The notes: generated by a model not told the origin, from the letters alone. 64,000 bases of DNA from Bacillota bacterium (GCA_019420525.1 JAHZHA010000027.1:38050-102049); one strand, 5' to 3'; positions 428 to 63,567 are shown, counted from the first letter of the stretch. Numbers and translations are program-made.

Positions 428-2782
428 TTAATGTATCAGATGCAATCTCTCTGCTGCATCCTTCGCCTCGCTTCTGCGGCTGACTCCCAGTTTTCGCAGG
501 ATACTGCTGACATGTGTCTTCACTGTAGACAATTTGATATCCAAAATGTCACCGATCTCAGCATTACTTCTGCTGGCACAGATCAAGCGCAACACCTGCA
601 GTTCTGCCGCGGAAAGCGGTGCCGACATCTCTCTGCGCGGATGCAGATAGTCAGGATACATAGAAGCATGTTCTCTCGTAGCCATAATCAGTTTCTTTCG
701 GAATTTTTCATCGCCTTCCCATCCACACTCTTCCAATAGTGGAAGAACCGCCGTTCCATACTGACTGATCGTCCGGACAAAGCTGAAAGAATGAGCCGTA
801 TCCAGGGCAGTATATATTTCTTCGCGCCACTGGCTGTCTCCCAGTCGTTTCCAGGCTATCGCCGAAAGGATGTGAAGGTGTATACTGTCGATATACCTGG
901 CGCAGATTCTGCAGTAATTTCTCAGCGGTGACAATGTAATCAGCGCCTGCTCCTCCTCGCCCTGAACGAGTTCCACCATGGCTTGTGTAAAATACTGATA
1001 TCGTTTCATCACTCTCAAACGCTGCGGATTTCCAGGAGCCTTCTCTCTGTACCAGCTGTCTGCTGCCGCATCCTTACCTGTGAGCAGGTCAATCCTGCAC
1101 AGCATGGCATCGATATTTCCTAAAAAACGACGATATCCTTCCTTTTCAAAACGCTGCCTGAGATCCATCAGGCTTTTTCTCGCATCAGACGCCCTGCCCA
1201 GATCCGCCTGCATCCGCACCAGCAGTCCTGTAGCGGCGAATTCGATGTCCGGAGAACCTTCTCTGCGTATACGATCCATTTTCTGCAGCAGATCCATAAT
1301 CCTGTCGCGTATGTCTTCACCTTTTTCAAATTTACTTTCTGCCACTGCACAATCAGCCAGACACACACCGTCCTTTCCCAGAACCATCTCCACCGGAAGA
1401 CGCAGTGTTTTATAAAGCAGATCGTCTTTTCGGCTCCAGGGAGAAAAATCCTTGCCTCCGTTCATGAGACTAGGCAGGGTACTGGTGACGGACATGGGGG
1501 AAACACTGATCTCTTTACGGATCAGCATTCCACACACTTTTGGAAACAGCTCCACAGCGCTCTCAACACTGCGCTGAGGCAATGCAATATCAAGCCATAC
1601 CAGACGACTTTTCGCTTCGCGCACATCACTGTCAAAAGGTGTCCTGCTCTGTATAAATTTTTTCAGCGACCGGTACCAACGTTCTGATCCTTCATAATCC
1701 ATACAGATAGCACACAGCATACTCATCCCCTGCATCAGCGCAGGAGATGCCAGAATCTCTTTTTCCGGCAGAGCACGATAATACGGCTCCATTTCATCGT
1801 AATAACCCATTCCGGGATGAATCTCGGCATTTTTCACCAGAAGTTCCGAGATTTTGGTATAAGCTCCAATTCTGGAATAACACGCCAGCGCATTTCCGTA
1901 ATCTTCCTTCAGTTCATAGTACAGTCCTCCTCTGTTGTACAGATCGCGTTTCTGCTCTTCGCTGTACTCCTGCTCCATTTTCCAAAGAAGAAAGTCACGG
2001 AACAGCGGCCGGAAAGAATAGCTGTTCATTCGTTTCCGGACAAACATTGTCGTATCCCTCTGCAGGCGGTCCAGAACTTTGCCTGCCCGGCTGTTTCCGC
2101 TTATAATCCTGACCAGTTCCGAATCAAACTGCTCGAAAGGAGCAAGATCCAGAAGCATCCTGCGGTTAGAAAGAGAAAAACGCCTGTATACCATCTCCTC
2201 GAAATACAGAAAAATCTCCCGACGCACCTGATCTTTCGTCACCTCATTATAAGGTTCTCCTTTTTTCATATGATTCGCCAGAATACTCAGCGCCAGAGGA
2301 TATCCTTTCGTGTCTTCCAAAACGGATGTCAGGACAACATCAGAAACACAGATACCGTATTCTGAAAACAGGCGACTTACGCTTTCCCGATCCAGCGCAA
2401 GATCCCTCTCTCTGAAAACAGTCATCGCACCGGTGGTTTGAAAAGGAATCAGCCAGCCCGGAACCTCTCCCCGGCTGAGAAATACGAAACGCCTCTGCGG
2501 ATTTTCGCGGATCATTTTGCAGAGTATCTGCTGATCCTCTTCATCTGTAAGATACTGGAGATTATCTACAATCAGAGTCTTCCACTTGCCTGGCGAAGCC
2601 GGGAGAAGAAATCCGGAATCATCTGCCTGAATTATATATGTATATCTTCCCGACAGCAGGAAACGGGTTACCGTCGTTTTTCCAAAACCGCAGGGAGCAC
2701 TGAACATCAGGACGCGTCCACCCTTCAGAGCATCTTCGATCCGTTCTTTCAGTCCCTGTTTCAGAACTGTTTTTTTTCCCAT
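428..2782 (-). CDS. Large ATP-binding LuxR-family (LAL/MalT-like) transcriptional regulator
   Basis: N-terminal Walker A (SAPCGFGKTT), a long helical/TPR-like middle, and a C-terminal LuxR HTH (ELQVLRLICASRSNAEIGDILDIKLSTVKTHVSSILRKLGV). The RBS AGAGGAGG sits 7 nt before the ATG. Confidence 0.8.
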   Translation of the reverse strand: MGKKTVLKQGLKERIEDALKGGRVLMFSAPCGFGKTTVTRFLLSGRYTYIIQADDSGFLLPASPGKWKTLIVDNLQYLTDEEDQQILCKMIRENPQRRFVFLSRGEVPGWLIPFQTTGAMTVFRERDLALDRESVSRLFSEYGICVSDVVLTSVLEDTKGYPLALSILANHMKKGEPYNEVTKDQVRREIFLYFEEMVYRRFSLSNRRMLLDLAPFEQFDSELVRIISGNSRAGKVLDRLQRDTTMFVRKRMNSYSFRPLFRDFLLWKMEQEYSEEQKRDLYNRGGLYYELKEDYGNALACYSRIGAYTKISELLVKNAEIHPGMGYYDEMEPYYRALPEKEILASPALMQGMSMLCAICMDYEGSERWYRSLKKFIQSRTPFDSDVREAKSRLVWLDIALPQRSVESAVELFPKVCGMLIRKEISVSPMSVTSTLPSLMNGGKDFSPWSRKDDLLYKTLRLPVEMVLGKDGVCLADCAVAESKFEKGEDIRDRIMDLLQKMDRIRREGSPDIEFAATGLLVRMQADLGRASDARKSLMDLRQRFEKEGYRRFLGNIDAMLCRIDLLTGKDAAADSWYREKAPGNPQRLRVMKRYQYFTQAMVELVQGEEEQALITLSPLRNYCRICARYIDSIHLHILSAIAWKRLGDSQWREEIYTALDTAHSFSFVRTISQYGTAVLPLLEECGWEGDEKFRKKLIMATREHASMYPDYLHPRREMSAPLSAAELQVLRLICASRSNAEIGDILDIKLSTVKTHVSSILRKLGVSRRSEAKDAAERLHLIH

Positions 2783-56387: not shown

Positions 56388-56463
56388 TGGTGCCCAGACT
56401 CGGAATCGAACCAAGGACACGGGGATTTTCAGTCCCCTGCTCTACCTACTGAGCTATCTGGGC
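56388..56463 (-). tRNA. tRNA-Phe (GAA), copy 1
   Basis: GCCCAGATAGCTCAGTAGGTAGAGCAGGGGACTGAAAATCCCC...TTCGATTCC...GGGCACCA; anticodon loop CUGAAAA. Confidence 0.85.
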
Positions 56464-56466
56464 ATG

Positions 56467-56541
56467 TGGAGCGGAAGACGAGATTCGAACTCGCGACCCT
56501 CGCCTTGGCAAGGCGATGCTCTACCACTGAGCCACTTCCGC
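56467..56541 (-). tRNA. tRNA-Gly (GCC)
   Basis: GCGGAAGTGGCTCAGTGGTAGAGC...; anticodon loop UUGCCAA; CCA encoded. Confidence 0.85.
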
Positions 56542-56560
56542 ATATATGAAATTTTAAAAA

Positions 56561-56637
56561 TGGCGATCCGGAACGGGCTCGAACCGTCGACCTCCAGCGT
56601 GACAGGCTGGCATTCTAACCAACTGAACTACCGGACC
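56561..56637 (-). tRNA. tRNA-Asp (GUC)
   Basis: GGTCCGGTAGTTCAGTTGGTTAGAATGCCAGCCTGTCACGCTGG...; anticodon loop CUGUCAC; CCA encoded. Confidence 0.85.
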
Positions 56638-56778
56638 GCATACTCCGAAACTCCATCTGAAGAAAGAGATCGCCTGTCCGCCTCCGTTATGGCAATAAAA
56701 AAATTCTTCAGGAACCATCCTTTAGAATTTGCCGAAGAAGCCCGCTATCCGATTGTTCAGACTGTCTCAGATAAATTA

Positions 56779-56854
56779 TGGTGGGCGTTATAGGGCTCGA
56801 ACCTATGACATCCTGCTTGTAAGGCAGACGCTCTCCCAGCTGAGCTAAACGCCC
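56779..56854 (-). tRNA. tRNA-Val (UAC)
   Basis: GGGCGTTTAGCTCAGCTGGGAGAGC...; anticodon loop CUUACAA. Confidence 0.85.
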
Positions 56855-56879
56855 ATAACATATCAAATTAGGAAAATTT

Positions 56880-56955
56880 TGGTGCCCAGACTCGGAATCG
56901 AACCAAGGACACGGGGATTTTCAGTCCCCTGCTCTACCTACTGAGCTATCTGGGC
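56880..56955 (-). tRNA. tRNA-Phe (GAA), copy 2 (identical to copy 1)
   Basis: The 76-nt sequence is identical to 56388-56463. Confidence 0.85.
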
Positions 56956-56961
56956 ACACTA

Positions 56962-57038
56962 TGGTGGGCCATCAGGGACTTGAACCCGGGACCTGCCGGT
57001 TATGAGCCGGATGCTCTGACCAACTGAGCTAATGGCCC
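56962..57038 (-). tRNA. tRNA with CAU anticodon (elongator Met or lysidine-modified Ile2)
   Basis: GGGCCATTAGCTCAGTTGGTCAGAGC...CTCATAACC... The anticodon loop CUCAUAA resembles Firmicutes tRNA-Ile2 more than elongator Met. It is not initiator-like. Confidence 0.75.
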
Positions 57039-57044
57039 TTAAAA

Positions 57045-57121
57045 TGGTCGGGGTGGCAGGATTTGAACCCGCGACCCACTGGTCCCAAACCAGTTGCGCT
57101 ACCAAACTGCGCTACACCCCG
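57045..57121 (-). tRNA. tRNA-Pro (UGG)
   Basis: CGGGGTGTAGCGCAGTTTGGTAGCGC...; anticodon loop UUUGGGA. Confidence 0.85.
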
Positions 57122-57528: not shown

Positions 57529-57568
57529 AAAAACAGCAAAGAACCCGGCAGATAATTCTGCCGGGTTC
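57529..57568 (-). terminator. Intrinsic terminator after the small codon-atypical ORF
   Basis: Perfect 12-bp stem GAACCCGGCAGA-TAAT-TCTGCCGGGTTC, followed on the minus strand by TTTGCTGTTTTT. Confidence 0.65.
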
Positions 57569-57606
57569 CCGATTTTCGATAAGTAAATGATCCGATAAGC
57601 CTCTGC

Positions 57607-57912
57607 TTAGTTTCTTGCAGGAGTCGGAGCTGGATCTACTGCTGCTACTACAGTCTTCATGAAGGATACTCTAACGTCGAAGTCAGGATCTTCCATGATA
57701 ACGTCTAAACCTGCAGGAACCTTTTCGCCGATTCTTTCAGCGAGAGCTGCGATCTGATATTCGAAGTGACCTCTGTCGCATAATTCTGCAGCGTTTCTTA
57801 ATTCCTGCATTTCGAAGTAAGATAACTTACCAGCCTTCTTGATGAGAGCGATTACTTCTTCTGCCAGCTTTTCTTCATCTGGAGCTGCTACGTTGTTCCA
57901 ATAATCACGCAT
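57607..57912 (-). CDS. Small (101 aa) acidic protein of unknown function, codon usage atypical for the region
   Basis: RBS AAAGGA then ATG, with its own strong terminator. Uses cgt/aga, ggt, gct, gta and tta codons and has lower GC than its neighbours. Confidence 0.5.
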   Translation of the reverse strand: MRDYWNNVAAPDEEKLAEEVIALIKKAGKLSYFEMQELRNAAELCDRGHFEYQIAALAERIGEKVPAGLDVIMEDPDFDVRVSFMKTVVAAVDPAPTPARN

Positions 57913-58083
57913 AATAATAATCCTTTCTTTTAATTATAAAAATTAAAATAACTAATGACATTCCTCAGCGCGCGCCGTCTGCGCACAACCGGGAATTCTA
58001 CCAACAATAGATTATCATACAGGCTGTTCTTTGTCAACAACAGCAGCGCGATCCTGCTAGAAATGTTTCCGTTGCGACACGGA

Positions 58084-60615
58084 TCAGAAATGCAACTCGG
58101 TACGCTGGATCAGATCTTTCTGGAGCGGTTTGCCCAGTTCCACGAAATAAGCGCTGTAGCCCGCCACTCTCACTAACATATCTCTGTAGTCTTCCGGCTT
58201 TTTCTGCGCCGCCTTCATGGTCTCTGCGCTCATGATATTGAACTGAACGTGCATCGGACCTTCCGACAGGTATGCGTCGATAAAGCTGACCAGATTGTCT
58301 CTTCCCTCCGTTCCCGCCACGGCATCCTGCGGGAATCTCATGTTCATCAGCGTGCCGTTGCTGGCAAGGCTGTGATCCACCTTCGCCAGAGAATTTGCCA
58401 GGGCTGTCGGTCCCTCCGTATCGTGGGAACCCGCATCGGTATGAACGGGGCCCATGTTGTCGGAAATCGCTTCTCCGGCTTTTCTTCCGTCCAGAGATGC
58501 GTTTGTATTGAGTCCCATGGCCACGTTGGCGTTTACGGAATATATGCCGGGACTGAACTCGCCTTCGCCTCTGACGATCTTTCTGCCTCTGACGTGTCTG
58601 CAATAACATTCAAACATGAAGCGGAAGAGTTCATCCGCATAGTCGTCGTCGTTTCCGTAATGGTGAACTTTGGAGCTGTTGACCAGAGCATAGAGACGGT
58701 CGTGTCCTTTCCAGTTATCTTTTATCGCCTGGAGCAGTTCTGCGCCAGTCCAGCGTTTTTCGTCGAACACCAGCTGTCTGACAGCTGACAGGGAATCCGC
58801 GCAGGTGGCCATACCGCTGGCCTGAGGTCCGATTCCGTTGTATTTTGCTCCGCCTTCGGTCAAATCTTTTCCCGTCTCGATGCAGTGCGGGAAGAATGCG
58901 GAGATATAAGGCGTCGGCTTTCTCACCCTGTGCGCCTCGCTGATGATATTGAGACTGCTGCACATCTGGTCACACCAGTATTCGAACTGTTTTTCCACGC
59001 TTTCCAGAACTTCTTCAAAACTCTGATACGTATCGAGGCTTCCGGTATCCGGTCCCAGCTGATCTCCCAGAGCGCCGCACTTTTCCCATCTCGCGCAGTG
59101 CGGTCCGCAGTCCAGGCAACGTCCGCCGTTGAAGACCATTTCCATCATCTTCGGTGTGTTGACGTAAGCCGAATCGTGCCATCCGAATTCTCTTCCCGGA
59201 AGGTCGGGTTCCACACAGCCTACCACCGCGTAATCTCTGGCTTCTTCCAGCGTCATTCCCTTTCTCATCATGGCTTTGATGGTCGGCGCATCGTTGAAAA
59301 CTTTCGGGTGTCCGTATCCCGCCCGGATACATTCCACGGTCTTCACTTTCAGCTCATACGGTGTGTTTTCGTGCATGCGGACGCATACCCACGGATTCAT
59401 CATTCTCGTGTGGGCGGAAGCTTCCAGCATCAGCATCGTCAGATCATTGGTGGCATCGTTGCCTTCGCTGTCGACTCCTCCGATGGTGAGGCTTTCCCCG
59501 CCGAATCCCCGGCCGTTCCTCACCGCCATACTTCCTTTGTCCTTCAGCTTGGTGGGATTATTCATCTTAACGTATTCCACTTCCAGGATTTCCAGGGCGA
59601 ATTCTTTCGTCAGAGTGCCTCTCTTGAGATCGGCCTCGTAATACGGATAGAGCCACTGGTCCATGCGGCCGTAGGAAATGGAATGACCGTTGCTCTCTAT
59701 CTGGATCAGCGTAGTGGCGAAATTAAACAGCTGAACCGCCTGCCAGAATGTCTGCGGAGCGCCTCCTGCGATCCGGAAGCAGTTTTCCGCCATCTGTTCC
59801 AGTTCCTTTTTTCTGTCCGCGTCTTTTTCCGCTGCAGCGCATTCCTGCGCCAGTTTTCCGTAACGTTCGATATATTTCTTCGCGGCTTCCAGCATGATGA
59901 TGGTCGCCTGGTAATATTCCTTTTTGTCGGCGTATTCCGGATCTCTCTTGCTGAGTTTTCCGAGAGCTTCTTTCACCTCTTCGATGACGCCGTCGTATCC
60001 GCCCTTCATCAGTCTGCCGTAATCCATCACCAGATGGCCTACGCCTGCGTAGTGATAGAGGTTCGTCTGGAAGATCTTCTTTCCCACCTCGGAGCCTTTC
60101 ATCTGCTCCTCGTCCAGTCTGGAATTGATGAGATCGTCTACCGTCCTGCCCTGCCACCAGGCACAGAGATCGAGAATTTCCTGTCTTTCTTCATCATTTC
60201 TGATGTAGAACTGGTCGTGTTCTCTCTCTTCAAAAGGAGAGTGGAGAATTTCGTCGATGATCCAGTTTACGGAGAATTCCGGATAGATCGGAGAAGCTTT
60301 TGCAGGAGCCGCAATTTCACCCAGAATCAGATCTTCATCATATATATGAAGCGTCGCGTTCAGCAGAATATTTTCAAAAGCGTAAGCACACTGCAGCTTG
60401 CGCGGTGCATTTTCGTGTTTCTGATAGGCTTCTGTCACAAGTCTCAGTCTCTCCACGTCGATCTCGTACGGTCTGTCCAGGAAAGTCTGTCTCAGACGGT
60501 TGACTCTCGGAAACGGAGACCAGTCTTCGTGATTGACCACATAGCCGAGACTGTAAGTATGGTCAAAGGATTCTGTTCCGCAGGCTTTTGTATGGCTGAT
60601 ATTCTTTGCGCTCAT
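58084..60615 (-). CDS. Glycyl-radical enzyme of the dehydratase/lyase (Cys-x-Glu loop) clade, substrate unknown
   Basis: C-terminal glycyl-radical motif RVAGYSAYF. Cys loop VVGCVEP (thiyl Cys with Glu, as in glycerol dehydratase / CutC / HypD, not the CC of PFL). Start MSAKNISHTK at 60615 with RBS AGGAGGAATTTTAC. Confidence 0.8.
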   Translation of the reverse strand: MSAKNISHTKACGTESFDHTYSLGYVVNHEDWSPFPRVNRLRQTFLDRPYEIDVERLRLVTEAYQKHENAPRKLQCAYAFENILLNATLHIYDEDLILGEIAAPAKASPIYPEFSVNWIIDEILHSPFEEREHDQFYIRNDEERQEILDLCAWWQGRTVDDLINSRLDEEQMKGSEVGKKIFQTNLYHYAGVGHLVMDYGRLMKGGYDGVIEEVKEALGKLSKRDPEYADKKEYYQATIIMLEAAKKYIERYGKLAQECAAAEKDADRKKELEQMAENCFRIAGGAPQTFWQAVQLFNFATTLIQIESNGHSISYGRMDQWLYPYYEADLKRGTLTKEFALEILEVEYVKMNNPTKLKDKGSMAVRNGRGFGGESLTIGGVDSEGNDATNDLTMLMLEASAHTRMMNPWVCVRMHENTPYELKVKTVECIRAGYGHPKVFNDAPTIKAMMRKGMTLEEARDYAVVGCVEPDLPGREFGWHDSAYVNTPKMMEMVFNGGRCLDCGPHCARWEKCGALGDQLGPDTGSLDTYQSFEEVLESVEKQFEYWCDQMCSSLNIISEAHRVRKPTPYISAFFPHCIETGKDLTEGGAKYNGIGPQASGMATCADSLSAVRQLVFDEKRWTGAELLQAIKDNWKGHDRLYALVNSSKVHHYGNDDDYADELFRFMFECYCRHVRGRKIVRGEGEFSPGIYSVNANVAMGLNTNASLDGRKAGEAISDNMGPVHTDAGSHDTEGPTALANSLAKVDHSLASNGTLMNMRFPQDAVAGTEGRDNLVSFIDAYLSEGPMHVQFNIMSAETMKAAQKKPEDYRDMLVRVAGYSAYFVELGKPLQKDLIQRTELHF

Positions 60616-60635
60616 GTAAAATTCCTCCTGTCGTG

Positions 60636-61586
60636 TCACTCTTTTTCTTTTGTTCCCACCGTGCAGCGGATACCGCGGCTTCTGAAATATTCCGCAGTCT
60701 TCTCCACTTTCTTCTGGAAAGCTTTCCGGTTGATTCTGACGCCTTTCATGGGATACGGAATTCCCAGGGAGGCGTATTTTTCCTCTCCCAGACGCATGAA
60801 GCTCAGCAGCTGCAGCGTCCTCACCCGGCCTTTCAGGTCCTGAAGAATGAAATCCGCCGAAGCTTCCATATTTTCCATGCTGTCATTGAAGCCCGGGATC
60901 ACGGGAATGCGCAGAATCATCTCTCTGCGTTCCTCCGCCAGACGCCTGAGATTTTCCAGAATTTTTTCGTTTCCGACACCCGTATGGATGCGATGGGTTT
61001 CGCTGTCCATGTGCTTGATGTCAGAGATGATCAGATCCGTCCAGGGAAGAACCTTTTCGATGTGTTCCCATTCCGCGAAGCACGTGGTCTCGCAGTAAGT
61101 GTGAACCAATTCCTGCCGGCATGCCCGGAAAAGTTCCGCCACGAAGTCCGCTTGCAGAAGAGGTTCTCCTCCGGATACGGTGATGCCTCCTCCGGATTTT
61201 TCGTAATAGCTGCGGTCCCGCAGGACTGTTTTCATGCATTCCTCTACGGTCATGATCCTTCCCCACTGCTTTAGAGCATCGGAAGGGCATTCGCTGTAAC
61301 AGGCCAGGCAGTCTGTGCAGACAGTCCGGTCGATGGACGACAGCTTTCCCTTGACGAATTTGAGTGCATTTTCCTCAGGGCAGATTTCAAGGCATCCCCC
61401 GCATTTTTTCCCGGAAATGCATTTGCTCCGGTATACGCCCATCTGTATCTGTCGTTTCCAGCTCTCCGGATTGCTGCACCACCGGCACCGCAGAGGGCAT
61501 CCCTTCAGAAAAAGTTCCGTCCTCACTCCCGGCCCGTCGTGGATCGTAAAACGCTGAATATTGAATACGGTTCCTCTCTGTGACAT
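60636..61586 (-). CDS. Glycyl-radical enzyme activating protein (radical SAM, with ferredoxin-like auxiliary clusters)
   Basis: HDGPGVRTELFLKGCPLRCRWCSNPES (CxxxCxxC radical SAM) plus additional CxxCxxC motifs. RBS GAAGGAAGGAGAAGG. The ORF-track start is over-extended. Confidence 0.8.
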   Translation of the reverse strand: MSQRGTVFNIQRFTIHDGPGVRTELFLKGCPLRCRWCSNPESWKRQIQMGVYRSKCISGKKCGGCLEICPEENALKFVKGKLSSIDRTVCTDCLACYSECPSDALKQWGRIMTVEECMKTVLRDRSYYEKSGGGITVSGGEPLLQADFVAELFRACRQELVHTYCETTCFAEWEHIEKVLPWTDLIISDIKHMDSETHRIHTGVGNEKILENLRRLAEERREMILRIPVIPGFNDSMENMEASADFILQDLKGRVRTLQLLSFMRLGEEKYASLGIPYPMKGVRINRKAFQKKVEKTAEYFRSRGIRCTVGTKEKE

Positions 61587-61696
61587 CTCCGCCTTCTCCT
61601 TCCTTCTGCACGTTCTCTTACATCTTATATCAGTGTAACAGCGCCGGAAGTGAGAAAAAAGTGACACATATGCCTATTTTATATAGGGAACATTCC

Positions 61697-62830
61697 CTAT
61701 TTTTCACCCCCTTCTTCCTCCTGAACCTCTCTGCTCTCCAGCCATTTATACAGCTGGAAGCGGCTCTTCACTCCGCATTTTGCGTAGATATTCTGTACGT
61801 GTTTTTTCACCGTGTGGTAGCTGACCACCATCTCGTCGGCGATCTCCCGGTAAGTCAGTCCCTGATGCATCAGTTCCGCCACCCGGCGCTCCGTCTGCGT
61901 CAGCGGAGAAGGCGCGGAAATCCGGAACGCTCCGTTTTCCTTCTCTTTCGACGAAATGGTGATCCAGTGGTATCGGTCCACAATGCCGTTGGAGTAACAC
62001 TGGTCGTAGGTATAGATTCGGAAGAGATAACCCTGTATGACTCTCGTTTTTACCTTTTTCTCTCCGCTCTCCTCCTCCTCACTGCCCAGCAGGAAGGGAA
62101 GCCAGCTGCAGGGAGCCGTGCTGCTGAGCTGTTCATCTGCCGCGGCACCTAGAATTTCCCGGAGACAGTTTCTCGCCGTCCGGTTGCAGCTCATCACATG
62201 CATAAAATCGTCTGTCACCAGATAGGCGTTTTCGCCGGAGGATATGATCTGGCTCTGGATATCCGAGATGATCCGTGCCTGCTCGTATTTCTTGAAATTC
62301 TTATAGGAATTGGCGATGTATACATATATTTTTTCCAGGATTCCGATTTCCTCTTCTGAGAAGTCACCTTTGTCTTTCCCCTTGAAAAAAGTCACCTGGA
62401 TGTAGGCGTTGATGCCGAAGGCCATGGTGACGCTGTAATGAGCCGAAAAGACATCTTCCAGAAAACGGACGTGACCGGAGGATTCATAATCCGCTCCGCT
62501 GATGACATCGGTGGAACGGTACAGTCTGGGTTCCACGTCGAAATAAGTGAGATGATCCCTCACCGCATCCCGGTAGATCCGCTGCCGAACCTCGTCATTT
62601 TCCTGGTATTGCCGGTAAGGATGCTGGCGGCTGTCGATGAGCATCCCTTTTTCCCCGATCCACGACAGAAACTTTCCCTGAGGATCAAAATACGAGATGA
62701 GAACCTCCTTCAGGCCGAAATTCCGGTCCAGGGAATCCAGCATCACGCTGTTGAAAAATTCCGTCGCGGAAATCTGCCGTTCCGCCATCTCAGAGAAAAA
62801 ATTCATCTGACCGCTGTTTTCATATTTCAC
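61697..62830 (-). CDS. LuxR-family transcriptional regulator with uncharacterised ~300-aa N-terminal sensing domain
   Basis: C-terminal HTH LTQTERRVAELMHQGLTYREIADEMVVSYHTVKKHVQNIYAKCGV. GTG start with RBS GGGGAGGAG. Confidence 0.7.
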   Translation of the reverse strand: MKYENSGQMNFFSEMAERQISATEFFNSVMLDSLDRNFGLKEVLISYFDPQGKFLSWIGEKGMLIDSRQHPYRQYQENDEVRQRIYRDAVRDHLTYFDVEPRLYRSTDVISGADYESSGHVRFLEDVFSAHYSVTMAFGINAYIQVTFFKGKDKGDFSEEEIGILEKIYVYIANSYKNFKKYEQARIISDIQSQIISSGENAYLVTDDFMHVMSCNRTARNCLREILGAAADEQLSSTAPCSWLPFLLGSEEEESGEKKVKTRVIQGYLFRIYTYDQCYSNGIVDRYHWITISSKEKENGAFRISAPSPLTQTERRVAELMHQGLTYREIADEMVVSYHTVKKHVQNIYAKCGVKSRFQLYKWLESREVQEEEGGEK

Positions 62831-63102
62831 GACACTCCTCCCCTCATCATTCCGCCGGACACCATTCCCGGCCTGTCTGTGCAGAATATATATTCACATA
62901 CATTTATTTACAGATTTTATTTAAAATGTAAAATAATCATCACATTTTCAGTCTATTCCATGCCGGAAAAAAATTCAACCGTTTTTACCGCCGGGATCTG
63001 CGCCGTACCGAAAGGACAAATTTTCGTCCGCAGATCTCTTTCACAAAAACAGGAAAGCGGTTCTATTCCGCAAAAACAGGAGGATGATTCTTCGCAGAGA
63101 TA

Positions 63103-63567
63103 TTGAAGACTTCCGCGCCGTCTGATAAAATTCTCTTCAATCCTGCCGTTTTTCCGGATCCGGAAGAACAGTTCACCACTGTAAATAATTACATCGACAC
63201 GGAAAACATGATTCTGCGGAAAGGCTCTGTTTCCGCGCAGCAGGGCGAAAAACTGCTGATTCCCATCAACATGCGGGACGGCAGTCTGATCTGCACGGGA
63301 AAAGGAAACGCAGACTGGAATTATTCCGCGCCCCACGGTGCCGGCTGCCTGATGAGCAGGACAGAGGCGAAGCGGACGTTTACCCTTCCGGAATACGAAA
63401 AAGAGATGGAAAACGTGTACACCACCTCGGTGAGCCGCTCCACCCTGGACGAATGCCCCATGGCCTACAAAGACATGCGGGACATCCTGGACAACATCGG
63501 TCCTACGGCCCGGGTGAACAAAATCATCCGTCCCGTCTACAACTTCAAAGCCGGCGGCGAGGGATGA
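63103..63567 (+). pseudogene. rtcB: RtcB-family RNA ligase, C-terminal fragment only (truncated remnant)
   Basis: ...NYSAPHGAGCLMSRTEAKRTFTLPEYEKEME... matches the RtcB C-terminus (HGAGR motif, here HGAGC). It is only 154 codons, and the N-terminal two-thirds of the domain is absent from the upstream AT-rich DNA. Confidence 0.45.

Follow-up and report, generated by a model that had tools for sequence, protein, structure and literature searches.

(S)-2,3-Dihydroxypropane-1-sulfonate (DHPS) is a plant-derived sulfonate and a breakdown product of sulfoquinovose. The HpfG/HpfH system of gut bacteria, comprising a glycyl-radical enzyme (GRE) and its activase, is reported to dehydrate DHPS to 3-sulfopropionaldehyde, with HpfG identified in K. 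oxytoca and HpfD in H. hathewayi and E. gilvus (PMC11489063, PMC12890257, PMC13450708), and homology models of HpfG are described in which the substrate is bound like glycerol in glycerol dehydratase (GD) (PMC13450708). The 64-kb stretch of DNA analysed here (the window), whose host is probably an Anaerovoracaceae bacterium, contains all of the cassette features listed in the original prediction, all on the minus strand (Table 1); its remaining genes are housekeeping or unrelated to the cassette. Taken as a whole, the region is best explained, with good confidence, as a minimal hpfR–hpfH–hpfG module of the DHPS dehydratase type together with its putative regulation. The enzyme itself is of an already known kind; what is new is a conserved, previously undescribed regulator and its predicted DNA operator.

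Table 1. Coordinates of the cassette features and of the adjoining small gene, numbered from the first nucleotide of the window.
Feature	Position	Strand	Basis
hpfR (proposed name), 377-aa LuxR-type one-component regulator	61697..62830	-	ORF and GerE HTH
Predicted HpfR operator, perfect 18-bp palindrome	61683..61700	.	Sequence match
Predicted extended -10 of the hpfHG promoter, TGTTACACT	61632..61640	-	Motif and spacing
hpfH, glycyl-radical activating enzyme, 316 aa	60636..61586	-	HpfH equivalog, Pfam, gene call
hpfG, (2S)-2,3-dihydroxypropane-1-sulfonate (DHPS) dehydratase, 843-aa GRE	58084..60615	-	NF048009 equivalog, orthology
orf101, small acidic hypothetical protein, 101 aa, outside the cassette	57607..57912	-	ORF; synteny in relatives

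Judged by its sequence, the GRE is clearly a known enzyme type, an ortholog of the HpfG/HpfH system in a three-gene form. Its reading frame opens at an ATG that follows an AGGAGG ribosome-binding site, and the expected hallmarks of a Cys-x-Glu 1,2-eliminase of 843 residues are in place, namely GCVEP at residues 466-470 and RVAGYSAYF at 816-824, within PFL-like and Gly_radical Pfam domains. Against the NCBIfam equivalog for HpfG (NF048009, cutoff 1000 bits), the protein scores 1697.7 bits with model positions 1-824 covered, which is 700 bits over the cutoff and within 30 bits or so of the Klebsiella ortholog (1729); the Hungatella hathewayi ortholog reaches 1720, and the C. butyricum glycerol dehydratase falls under the cutoff at 745. 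Identity is 79.5% to the Klebsiella, 81.9% to the H. hathewayi and 81.0% to the Enterococcus orthologs (overall range 79.5-83.3%), a level similar to the 84% that these three share among themselves. At near-invariant family columns (at least 97% conserved across 71 HpfG orthologs) the window protein is identical in 354 of 358, the four differences all being conservative. The original prediction had held that the substrate could not be read from the sequence; the NF048009 score and the ortholog identity of 79-83% make the HpfG assignment readable, and by orthology the substrate would be (S)-DHPS.

The active site points the same way. The key HpfG residues are Cys467, Glu469 and Gly819, together with the HpfG-specific loop V-R366-N-G-R369-GFGG. 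The catalytic set of GD (His164, His281/Ser282, Cys433, Glu435, Asp447, Tyr640 and Gly763) is kept, aligning with H194, H311/S312, G466-C-V-E-P470, D481, Y692 and RVAG819 of HpfG. The VRNGRGFGG insertion and a deletion of GD Y336-Y339 are identical in the window protein and in 71/71 orthologs, and the position of GD Asn156 is Leu here and in 64/71; these three features may bind the sulfonate. Two residues depart from the ortholog consensus toward the GD state or a near equivalent, as read from the alignment: S482, adjoining catalytic Asp481, is Ala in 66/71 orthologs and Ser448 in GD, and I691, adjoining catalytic Tyr692, is Val in 71/71 and Leu639 in GD.

The longest activase reading frame spans 61667..60636 (-); the true start is likely the ATG at 61586, where a ribosome-binding site and ATG can be read and with which the 316-aa gene call agrees. 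The CX3CX2C motif CPLRCRWC and ferredoxin-like clusters are present; Pfam finds Radical_SAM, Fer4_12 and Fer4 (Fer4 cluster matches at residues 80-133), and the protein scores 544.5 bits on the HpfH equivalog NF048008 (cutoff 500 bits). The gap between hpfH and hpfG is 20 nt and includes the AGGAGG site. By orthology, HpfH would install a glycyl radical on Gly819 of HpfG, and a thiyl radical at Cys467 would, with Glu469 of the C-x-E loop, dehydrate (S)-DHPS to 3-sulfopropionaldehyde.

The regulator encoded upstream yields a single Pfam match, a GerE HTH (PF00196, E 4e-14) at residues 309-363, and its N-terminal ~300 residues have no match in Pfam or NCBIfam. An AF2 model (pLDDT 80 overall, exceeding 90 across the greater part of residues 40-170) displays two alpha/beta sensor-like domains, with a predicted layout of a GAF/PAS-like domain (~22-150), a long helix (159-198), a PAS-like domain (~203-294) and the LuxR/GerE HTH (309-363). 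Foldseek matches to the model include VqmA, EL222, 3clo, and phytochrome and PDE2A tandem GAF structures; VqmA, EL222 and phytochrome GAF-PHY are matched with a probability of 0.99-1.0 and with TM-scores of 0.16-0.35, a low range that reflects the multi-domain nature of the match. The sensor region is predicted from the model to consist of tandem GAF/PAS-like domains. The N-terminal region looks like a ligand sensor, as originally proposed, and is probably not a novel fold. Some database names label the protein a response regulator; Pfam and NCBIfam give no Response_reg match, and the model points to a GAF/PAS-like fold instead of the flavodoxin fold of a REC domain. In 45 of 80 related loci, ranging from Firmicutes to Enterobacteria, an HpfR homolog (43-70% identity) directly precedes hpfH–hpfG in the same orientation. 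The family is small: clustering at 50% identity gives about 100 clusters in a set of 1.84 billion representatives, and the near-full-length members measure about 355-390 aa. No mention of this regulator or its operator was found in the literature searched.

The end of hpfR overlaps a perfect 18-bp palindrome, ATAGGGAA-TG-TTCCCTAT (general form ATAGGGAA-NN-TTCCCTAT), which covers the stop codon (TAG, 61699..61697) and is unique in the 64 kb even when up to three mismatches are tolerated. Across the 80 related loci (1.37 Mb, up to two substitutions) it matches 45 times, 31 of these within 450 nt upstream of hpfH, five upstream of a DASS transporter gene and two upstream of hpfD (38/45 together). 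Of 44 hpfH-upstream sites, 27 have a TGnTAnnnT element 41-43 nt past the palindrome. The window is among these 27, its predicted extended -10 (TGTTACACT) lying 42 nt downstream; this element may act as the hpfHG promoter, and its position places the operator centre near -66.5. Both the box and its spacing to the -10 recur across phyla, and the palindrome co-occurs with the hpfR gene and covaries weakly with the HpfR recognition helix. On these grounds we predict that the palindrome is the HpfR operator. In Enterobacteria loci, a second, everted repeat is found nearer the promoter.

An HpfR dimer would bind this palindrome, whose centre lies some 66 bp ahead of the predicted hpfHG start site, and would switch on the extended -10 promoter on sensing a pathway ligand, most likely DHPS. 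PAS and GAF domains are sensors of many signal kinds, and the sequence would allow other ligands and either sign of regulation; HpfR could instead be a repressor, or could sense 3-sulfopropionaldehyde or a redox signal, a reading to which the additional enterobacterial repeat also lends itself. We regard this as the less likely reading, though worth keeping in view: an operator centred near -66, ahead of an extended -10 promoter whose -35 is weak or missing, would suit activation, and regulators of close structural similarity, VqmA among them, are activators switched on by a ligand.

Downstream of hpfG, the 101-aa reading frame exists as described, but its proposed membership of the cassette does not hold. 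No homolog occurs in any of the 80 hpfG loci; the 46 homologs found elsewhere are all hypothetical, the named ones belonging to Anaerovoracaceae and Eubacteriales MAGs, and relatives that have no GRE keep the backbone synteny orf101, tRNA gap, decarboxylase, TK, rSAM, QueH, PriA. A scan for promoters and terminators assigns orf101 a separate promoter-like site (57961..57933) and a terminator of its own (57570..57539). It is an unrelated, lineage-specific backbone gene outside the cassette. The region upstream of orf101 varies among related genomes, and a truncated RtcB pseudogene fragment, which differs between strains, adjoins hpfR.

In line with the lack of partner genes in the original prediction, the GRE has neither microcompartment nor HpfD-like nor transporter genes as neighbours. 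A tblastn search of the 64 kb with representatives of HpfD, HpfE (TauE), the DASS transporter, HpfX, HpfY, HpfZ, IclR, ROK and YihQ gave no match. The caveat that partners might sit just outside the window was followed up in sister strains, where no HpfD, HpfE, transporter or microcompartment gene occurs within 10 kb past the window end and the sole Fe-ADH in that stretch shares 24-29% identity with canonical HpfD-family members. Such linkage is frequent without being universal: among 39 fully flanked loci, hpfD lies within 8 kb in 30, and the minimal R-H-G arrangement is found in five. Since the DASS importer, the aldehyde reductase gene hpfD and the TauE exporter gene hpfE are not linked here, DHPS uptake and aldehyde disposal would rely on unlinked genes, or on generic dehydrogenases and transporters.

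The absence of canonical partners from the window and the 10 kb beyond could be read as the sign of a different pathway and of a GRE with a new specificity, as originally proposed, more so given a probable Anaerovoracaceae host that is not a known sulfoquinovose degrader and the lineage-specific S482 and I691 beside catalytic residues. We consider this very improbable. The protein, at ~80% identity and with the equivalog score and near-invariant columns given above, sits tightly within the characterised HpfG family with the family-specific active-site features conserved; its regulator and predicted operator are those of canonical hpf clusters, and the identical minimal module occurs in five other genomes. 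With the substrate readable from the sequence by orthology, the new-specificity claim fails; tight clustering inside a characterised GRE subfamily was the first outcome that the original prediction itself named as refuting it. The missing partners, the strain-variable RtcB fragment and the variable flank could also mark the cassette as a decaying, non-functional remnant of a horizontally acquired hpf fragment that lost hpfD and hpfE. This, too, we hold to be most unlikely, since the window and at least four sister contigs carry all three ORFs unbroken, and the operator sequence, the -10 element and the ribosome-binding sites are preserved, as are the catalytic residues; the same minimal arrangement, moreover, recurs independently. 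Relative to a sister strain, hpfG carries 54 synonymous and five nonsynonymous differences (pN/pS 0.025) and hpfR has a pN/pS of 0.045, values that argue for strong purifying selection on the hpfRHG module.

A minimal DHPS dehydratase module remains our preferred reading. The enzyme adds little, being an ortholog of a kind already named by NCBI as NF048009; the regulator, operator and minimal module are of modest value, chiefly to research on gut sulfonate cross-feeding. The operator offers a way to locate unlinked members of the regulon, the regulator could serve in DHPS biosensors, and its family flags uncharacterised GRE loci. Pathway-calling rules requiring hpfGHD co-location are in use (PMC12330013); they will miss genomes that carry the recurrent hpfRHG-only module, in which hpfD and hpfE are lacking. 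More tentatively, and with somewhat less than even confidence in the whole, we suggest that HpfR is the founder of a small undescribed sensor-LuxR family dedicated to GRE eliminase operons, that it senses DHPS and activates hpfHG via ATAGGGAA-NN-TTCCCTAT, that distant paralogs control uncharacterised GREs linked to BKACE and MFS genes, and that R-H-G is a portable, self-contained module through which non-sulfoglycolytic gut anaerobes exploit cross-fed DHPS by means of generic dehydrogenases.

Among known systems, the window is closest to HpfG/HpfH of K. oxytoca, H. hathewayi and E. gilvus, sharing an orthologous GRE (79-82% identity) and activase, the C-x-E loop, glycyl radical motif, arginine-rich loop, upstream regulator gene and predicted operator; it differs in lacking linked hpfD (Fe-ADH reductase), hpfE (TauE exporter), DASS importer and hpfXYZ, in its probable Anaerovoracaceae host, and in the conservative S482 and I691 near the active site. 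The B12-independent glycerol dehydratase of C. butyricum (PDB 1r8w) is the closest solved structure to HpfG (E 4e-184) and shares its fold and catalytic Cys/Glu/His/Asp/Tyr set, but is only 40.6% identical, scores below the NF048009 cutoff of 1000 (745), and has Y336-P-M-Y339 and Asn156, in whose place HpfG shows a deletion with an Arg-rich insertion and a Leu, respectively. The DHPS sulfolyase HpsG of Bilophila wadsworthia (PDB 6LON), also a GRE 1,2-eliminase, acts on the same substrate and cleaves C-S, whereas the HpfG type cleaves C-O; the window protein scores 483.7 on the HpsG equivalog (cutoff 1000), with E 6e-102 to 6lon. Finally, the PAS-LuxR regulators VqmA (6ide/7dwm), EL222 (3p7n) and Bacteroides 3clo, among the top Foldseek matches, combine a PAS-type sensor with a C-terminal LuxR/GerE HTH, as HpfR is predicted to do, and by analogy HpfR would be expected to bind its palindromic box as a dimer; HpfR differs from them in an extra N-terminal GAF/PAS-like domain and long connecting helix, and in a sensor region that bears no detectable sequence similarity to theirs by Pfam.

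The cassette motifs and open reading frames quoted in the original prediction were all located. The 843-aa glycyl radical enzyme (GRE) HpfG carries GCVEP (residues 466–470) and RVAGYSAYF (residues 816–824), with CPLRCRWC found in its activase HpfH. Pfam assigned PFL-like and Gly_radical domains to the GRE, and Radical_SAM plus Fer4 clusters to the activase; in the regulator HpfR it recognized only the GerE helix–turn–helix (residues 309–363), and neither the N-terminal ~300 residues nor the 101-aa ORF, orf101, had any match. As all motifs were found and the Pfam domains agree with them, the initial observation is confirmed.

Features of the hpf cassette, its surroundings and related loci (window coordinates unless a locus handle, L, is given)
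Feature	Position	Strand	Length	Remark
hpfR, LuxR-type ORF	62830..61697	-	377 aa	
hpfH, radical-SAM activase	ATG 61586 to 60636	-	316 aa	start from gene call and RBS; longest ORF starts 61667
hpfG, GRE	60615..58084	-	843 aa	
orf101	57912..57607	-	101 aa	171-nt gap after hpfG
Seven-tRNA array (Pro, Met, Phe, Val, Asp, Gly, Phe)	57121..56388	-		directly downstream of orf101
Predicted HpfR box, palindrome form ATAGGGAANNTTCCCTAT	61683-61700			overlaps hpfR stop codon
Predicted extended -10 of hpfHG, TGTTACACT	61640-61632			41-43 nt after HpfR box
RtcB RNA ligase fragment	63103-63567	+	154 aa	C-terminal part only
MalT-type LuxR regulator	428-2782	-	784 aa	WHD_MalT, TPR_MalT, GerE
Sister-strain DNA past window coordinate 64000	L082:1-9446			409-aa membrane protein, CLC channel, alkyl sulfatase, SLH protein, BdhA-like Fe-ADH and TetR gene
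HpfR paralog loci	L095:1-7119 (P0340); L097:1-5266 (P0348)			regulator with GRE, activase, BKACE beta-keto-acid cleavage enzyme, MFS transporter
Enterobacterial hpfH promoters	L026:8858-8960; L028:8833-8935; L031:8854-8956			everted repeat
ZIP / Rce1-like CAAX protease genes	L016:6588-7763; L024:7006-7740; L065:7083-8975; L095:7409-9795			

The GRE scored 1697.7 bits over its full length on the NCBIfam equivalog NF048009, '(2S)-3-sulfopropanediol dehydratase' (HpfG, Klebsiella type; curated cutoff 1000 bits). Control orthologs from Klebsiella and Hungatella hathewayi reached 1729 and 1720, and the Clostridium butyricum glycerol dehydratase (GD), the closest other characterized GRE, fell below the cutoff at 745. 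The activase scored 544.5 on NF048008 (HpfH; cutoff 500). In a scan that took one genome per species, 80 loci were found to encode proteins 71–83% identical to the window GRE, among them H. hathewayi DSM 13479, several Enterococcus species, K. spallanzanii and another member of Klebsiella, the genus in which HpfG was identified (PMC11489063, PMC12890257, PMC13450708); the equivalog name is already attached to many database homologs of ~80% identity. When aligned with 71 orthologs and GD, the window GRE shared 79.5% identity with the Klebsiella sequences, 81.9% with that of H. hathewayi (these two being 83.9% identical to each other) and 40.6% with GD. It departs from the orthologs at 4 of the 358 columns that are at least 97% conserved (I343, V612, an extra E684 and I691), in each case conservatively. 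Mapping of the active site against the GD sequence (PDB 1r8w) revealed that every GD catalytic position compared (H164, H281/S282, C433, E435, D447, Y640 and G763) is conserved. A novel substrate might be read from two residues that adjoin catalytic ones and differ from the ortholog consensus, namely S482, where 66 of 71 orthologs have Ala and GD has Ser, and I691, where every ortholog has Val and GD has Leu; however, the margin by which the equivalog cutoff is exceeded and the ~80% identity to HpfG orthologs render this very unlikely. The protein clusters tightly within the characterized HpfG subfamily with its presumed substrate-binding residues conserved, and the new GRE specificity originally proposed is not borne out.

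At 45 of the 80 loci, among them those from Klebsiella, Escherichia sp., Hungatella, Enterococcus, Fusobacteriaceae and a Collinsella, a full-length homolog of the LuxR-type gene (43–70% identity) directly precedes hpfH–hpfG in the same orientation; we regard this gene, which we name hpfR, as the conserved cognate regulator of hpfH–hpfG. An AlphaFold2 model of HpfR (pLDDT 80, from a 74-sequence alignment) predicts an alpha/beta sensor-like domain (~22–150), a 40-residue helix, a PAS-like domain (~203–294) and the helix–turn–helix. The best Foldseek matches in the PDB were PAS–LuxR sensors of the ligand or light type (VqmA, EL222 and Bacteroides 3clo), acyl-HSL LuxR receptors, and tandem GAF/PAS arrays (phytochromes, PDE2A); probabilities were high, and the low TM-scores are what a multi-domain match should give. 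The N-terminal domain, originally described as novel, is unrecognized by Pfam but is probably not a new fold. In the searchable literature we found no paper that mentions HpfG or HpfD (3-sulfopropionaldehyde reductase) alongside a LuxR regulator. Among plasmids, the regulator homolog occurred only on two Enterococcus raffinosus megaplasmids, so that nothing points to plasmid mobility. When complete E. coli genomes were searched for an annotated hpf cluster, the sole match was a flanking rluC fragment. A second LuxR-type gene in the window, of the MalT type, is unrelated to the hpf cassette and adjoins a glycosyltransferase/CotH/VTC cluster.

Alignment of the hpfR–hpfH intergenic regions yielded a predicted HpfR operator, a perfect 18-bp palindrome of the form ATAGGGAA-NN-TTCCCTAT. 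The box beside hpfR is the sole match in the 64 kb even when three mismatches are allowed. Across the 80 loci (1.37 Mb), 45 matches with at most two substitutions were obtained, of which 31 fall in the 450 nt preceding hpfH, 5 before a DASS importer gene and 2 before hpfD. At 27 of 44 hpfH-upstream sites the box is followed after 41–43 nt by an extended -10 (TGnTAnnnT), a spacing that would place the operator centre near –66.5. A recognition-helix change from Q to E (HVQNIY to HVENIY) tends to accompany a changed half-site (5 of 6 E-variants versus 7 of ~33 Q-variants, in counts that ignore kinship). We infer that HpfR binds this predicted site; the most economical reading, as to both ligand and sign of regulation, is that HpfR would act as an activator in response to (2S)-2,3-dihydroxypropane-1-sulfonate (DHPS). 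The enterobacterial hpfH promoters in three loci carry a second, everted repeat resembling TACCCTAT-N4-ATAGGGTA, ~60 nt downstream of the HpfR box, that replaces the Firmicute extended -10 at +42 and may be a second regulator site.

An exhaustive phmmer search of 1.84 billion representatives with the HpfR sensor region (residues 1–300) recovered only 100 clusters at E ≤0.001, whose near-full-length members span ~355–390 aa apart from a single 448-aa protein; the others are fragments. Four distant paralogs (26–28% identity) were inspected; two lie beside GREs, and the contigs of the other two are too short to tell. The two linked GREs pass no equivalog model, their best NCBIfam scores all falling below cutoff (TIGR01774, 588 versus 678; CutC, 574 versus 1050; the DHPS sulfolyase HpsG, 569 versus 1000), and these loci may represent an uncharacterized GRE pathway. 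Small as the sample is, it suggests that the HpfR family is tied to GRE operons. An operator scan near the distant paralogs gave nothing convincing. ZIP metal transporter and/or Rce1-like CAAX protease genes were seen beside hpfR/hpfHG or a paralog regulator in four unrelated loci. The remaining interest of the cassette lies in the undescribed regulator–operator pair and its possible tie to unknown GREs.

The original assignment of orf101 to the cassette did not hold: a homolog is present at none of the 80 hpfG loci. All of its 46 known homologs are hypothetical proteins, the few organism-named ones coming from Anaerovoracaceae or Eubacteriales MAGs; such names on clustered proteins point to Anaerovoracaceae as the probable host family. 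Three relatives without any GRE retain the downstream synteny of the window (tRNA gap, Orn/Lys/Arg decarboxylase, thymidine kinase, radical SAM, QueH and PriA), and the upstream neighbour varies among all three, which places the hpfRHG trio in a variable spot beside a conserved backbone. orf101 is also served by a promoter-like site of its own, which matches the consensus at 10 of 12 positions, and by a strong terminator. One metagenome assembly breaks at the seven-tRNA array, so that the cassette ends up on a 7.9-kb scaffold of its own. The RtcB ORF, a truncated pseudogene fragment, lies between hpfR and the membrane-protein gene upstream of it, in a region ~280 bp shorter in sister strains (window 62994–63494 versus 218 bp in the sister strain L082).

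Representatives of HpfD, the TauE exporter HpfE (its identity as TauE confirmed), two DASS transporters, HpfX/Y/Z, IclR, ROK and YihQ gave no tblastn match in the window, where the remaining genes are housekeeping or unrelated. Sister-strain contigs (98% DNA identity) reach 10 kb beyond the window end and held no partner genes there. Their BdhA-like Fe-ADH, which lies beyond the window at ~7.5 kb upstream of hpfR, was rejected as the missing HpfD, being 24–29% identical to canonical family members and accompanied by a TetR gene on the opposite strand; a 67%-identical relative near hpfG in another locus (L065) is separated from it by unrelated genes. The same sister-strain stretch encodes an SdsA1-like alkyl sulfatase (Lactamase_B, Alkyl_sulf_dimr and Alkyl_sulf_C), which hints at other organosulfur metabolism nearby. 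The description of the GRE as an orphan thus holds in part, and the arrangement is not unique: of the 39 loci flanked by at least 7 kb on each side, 30 include hpfD at a distance of no more than 8 kb and 5 carry only the hpfR–hpfH–hpfG module, with housekeeping neighbours (e.g. spoIIIAA, xseA) where flanks were checked. Comparison with a sister strain gave a pN/pS of 0.025 for hpfG, from 54 synonymous and 5 nonsynonymous differences, and of 0.045 for hpfR; the module is under purifying selection, and these low ratios argue against a decaying remnant. Synonymous divergence between window 58084–62830 and L082:10001–14747 is mosaic (hpfG 0.10, hpfR 0.075, hpfH 0.005, orf101 0), which suggests recombination inside the cassette.

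In the known pathway, HpfG and HpfH dehydrate DHPS to 3-sulfopropionaldehyde, which is either converted by HpfD to 3-hydroxypropanesulfonate for export by HpfE, or oxidized by HpfXYZ with a gain of ATP (PMC11489063, PMC12890257, PMC13450708, PMC12330013). Relative to GD, the window GRE and all 71 orthologs share an inserted V-R-N-G-R-G-F-G-G loop and a four-residue deletion that removes GD Tyr339; the substitution of Asn156 by Leu is common to the window GRE and 64 of the 71. Judged from its sequence, the window enzyme is a further member of the known HpfGH DHPS-dehydratase system, ordinary as an enzyme and found here in a minimal, regulator-linked form.
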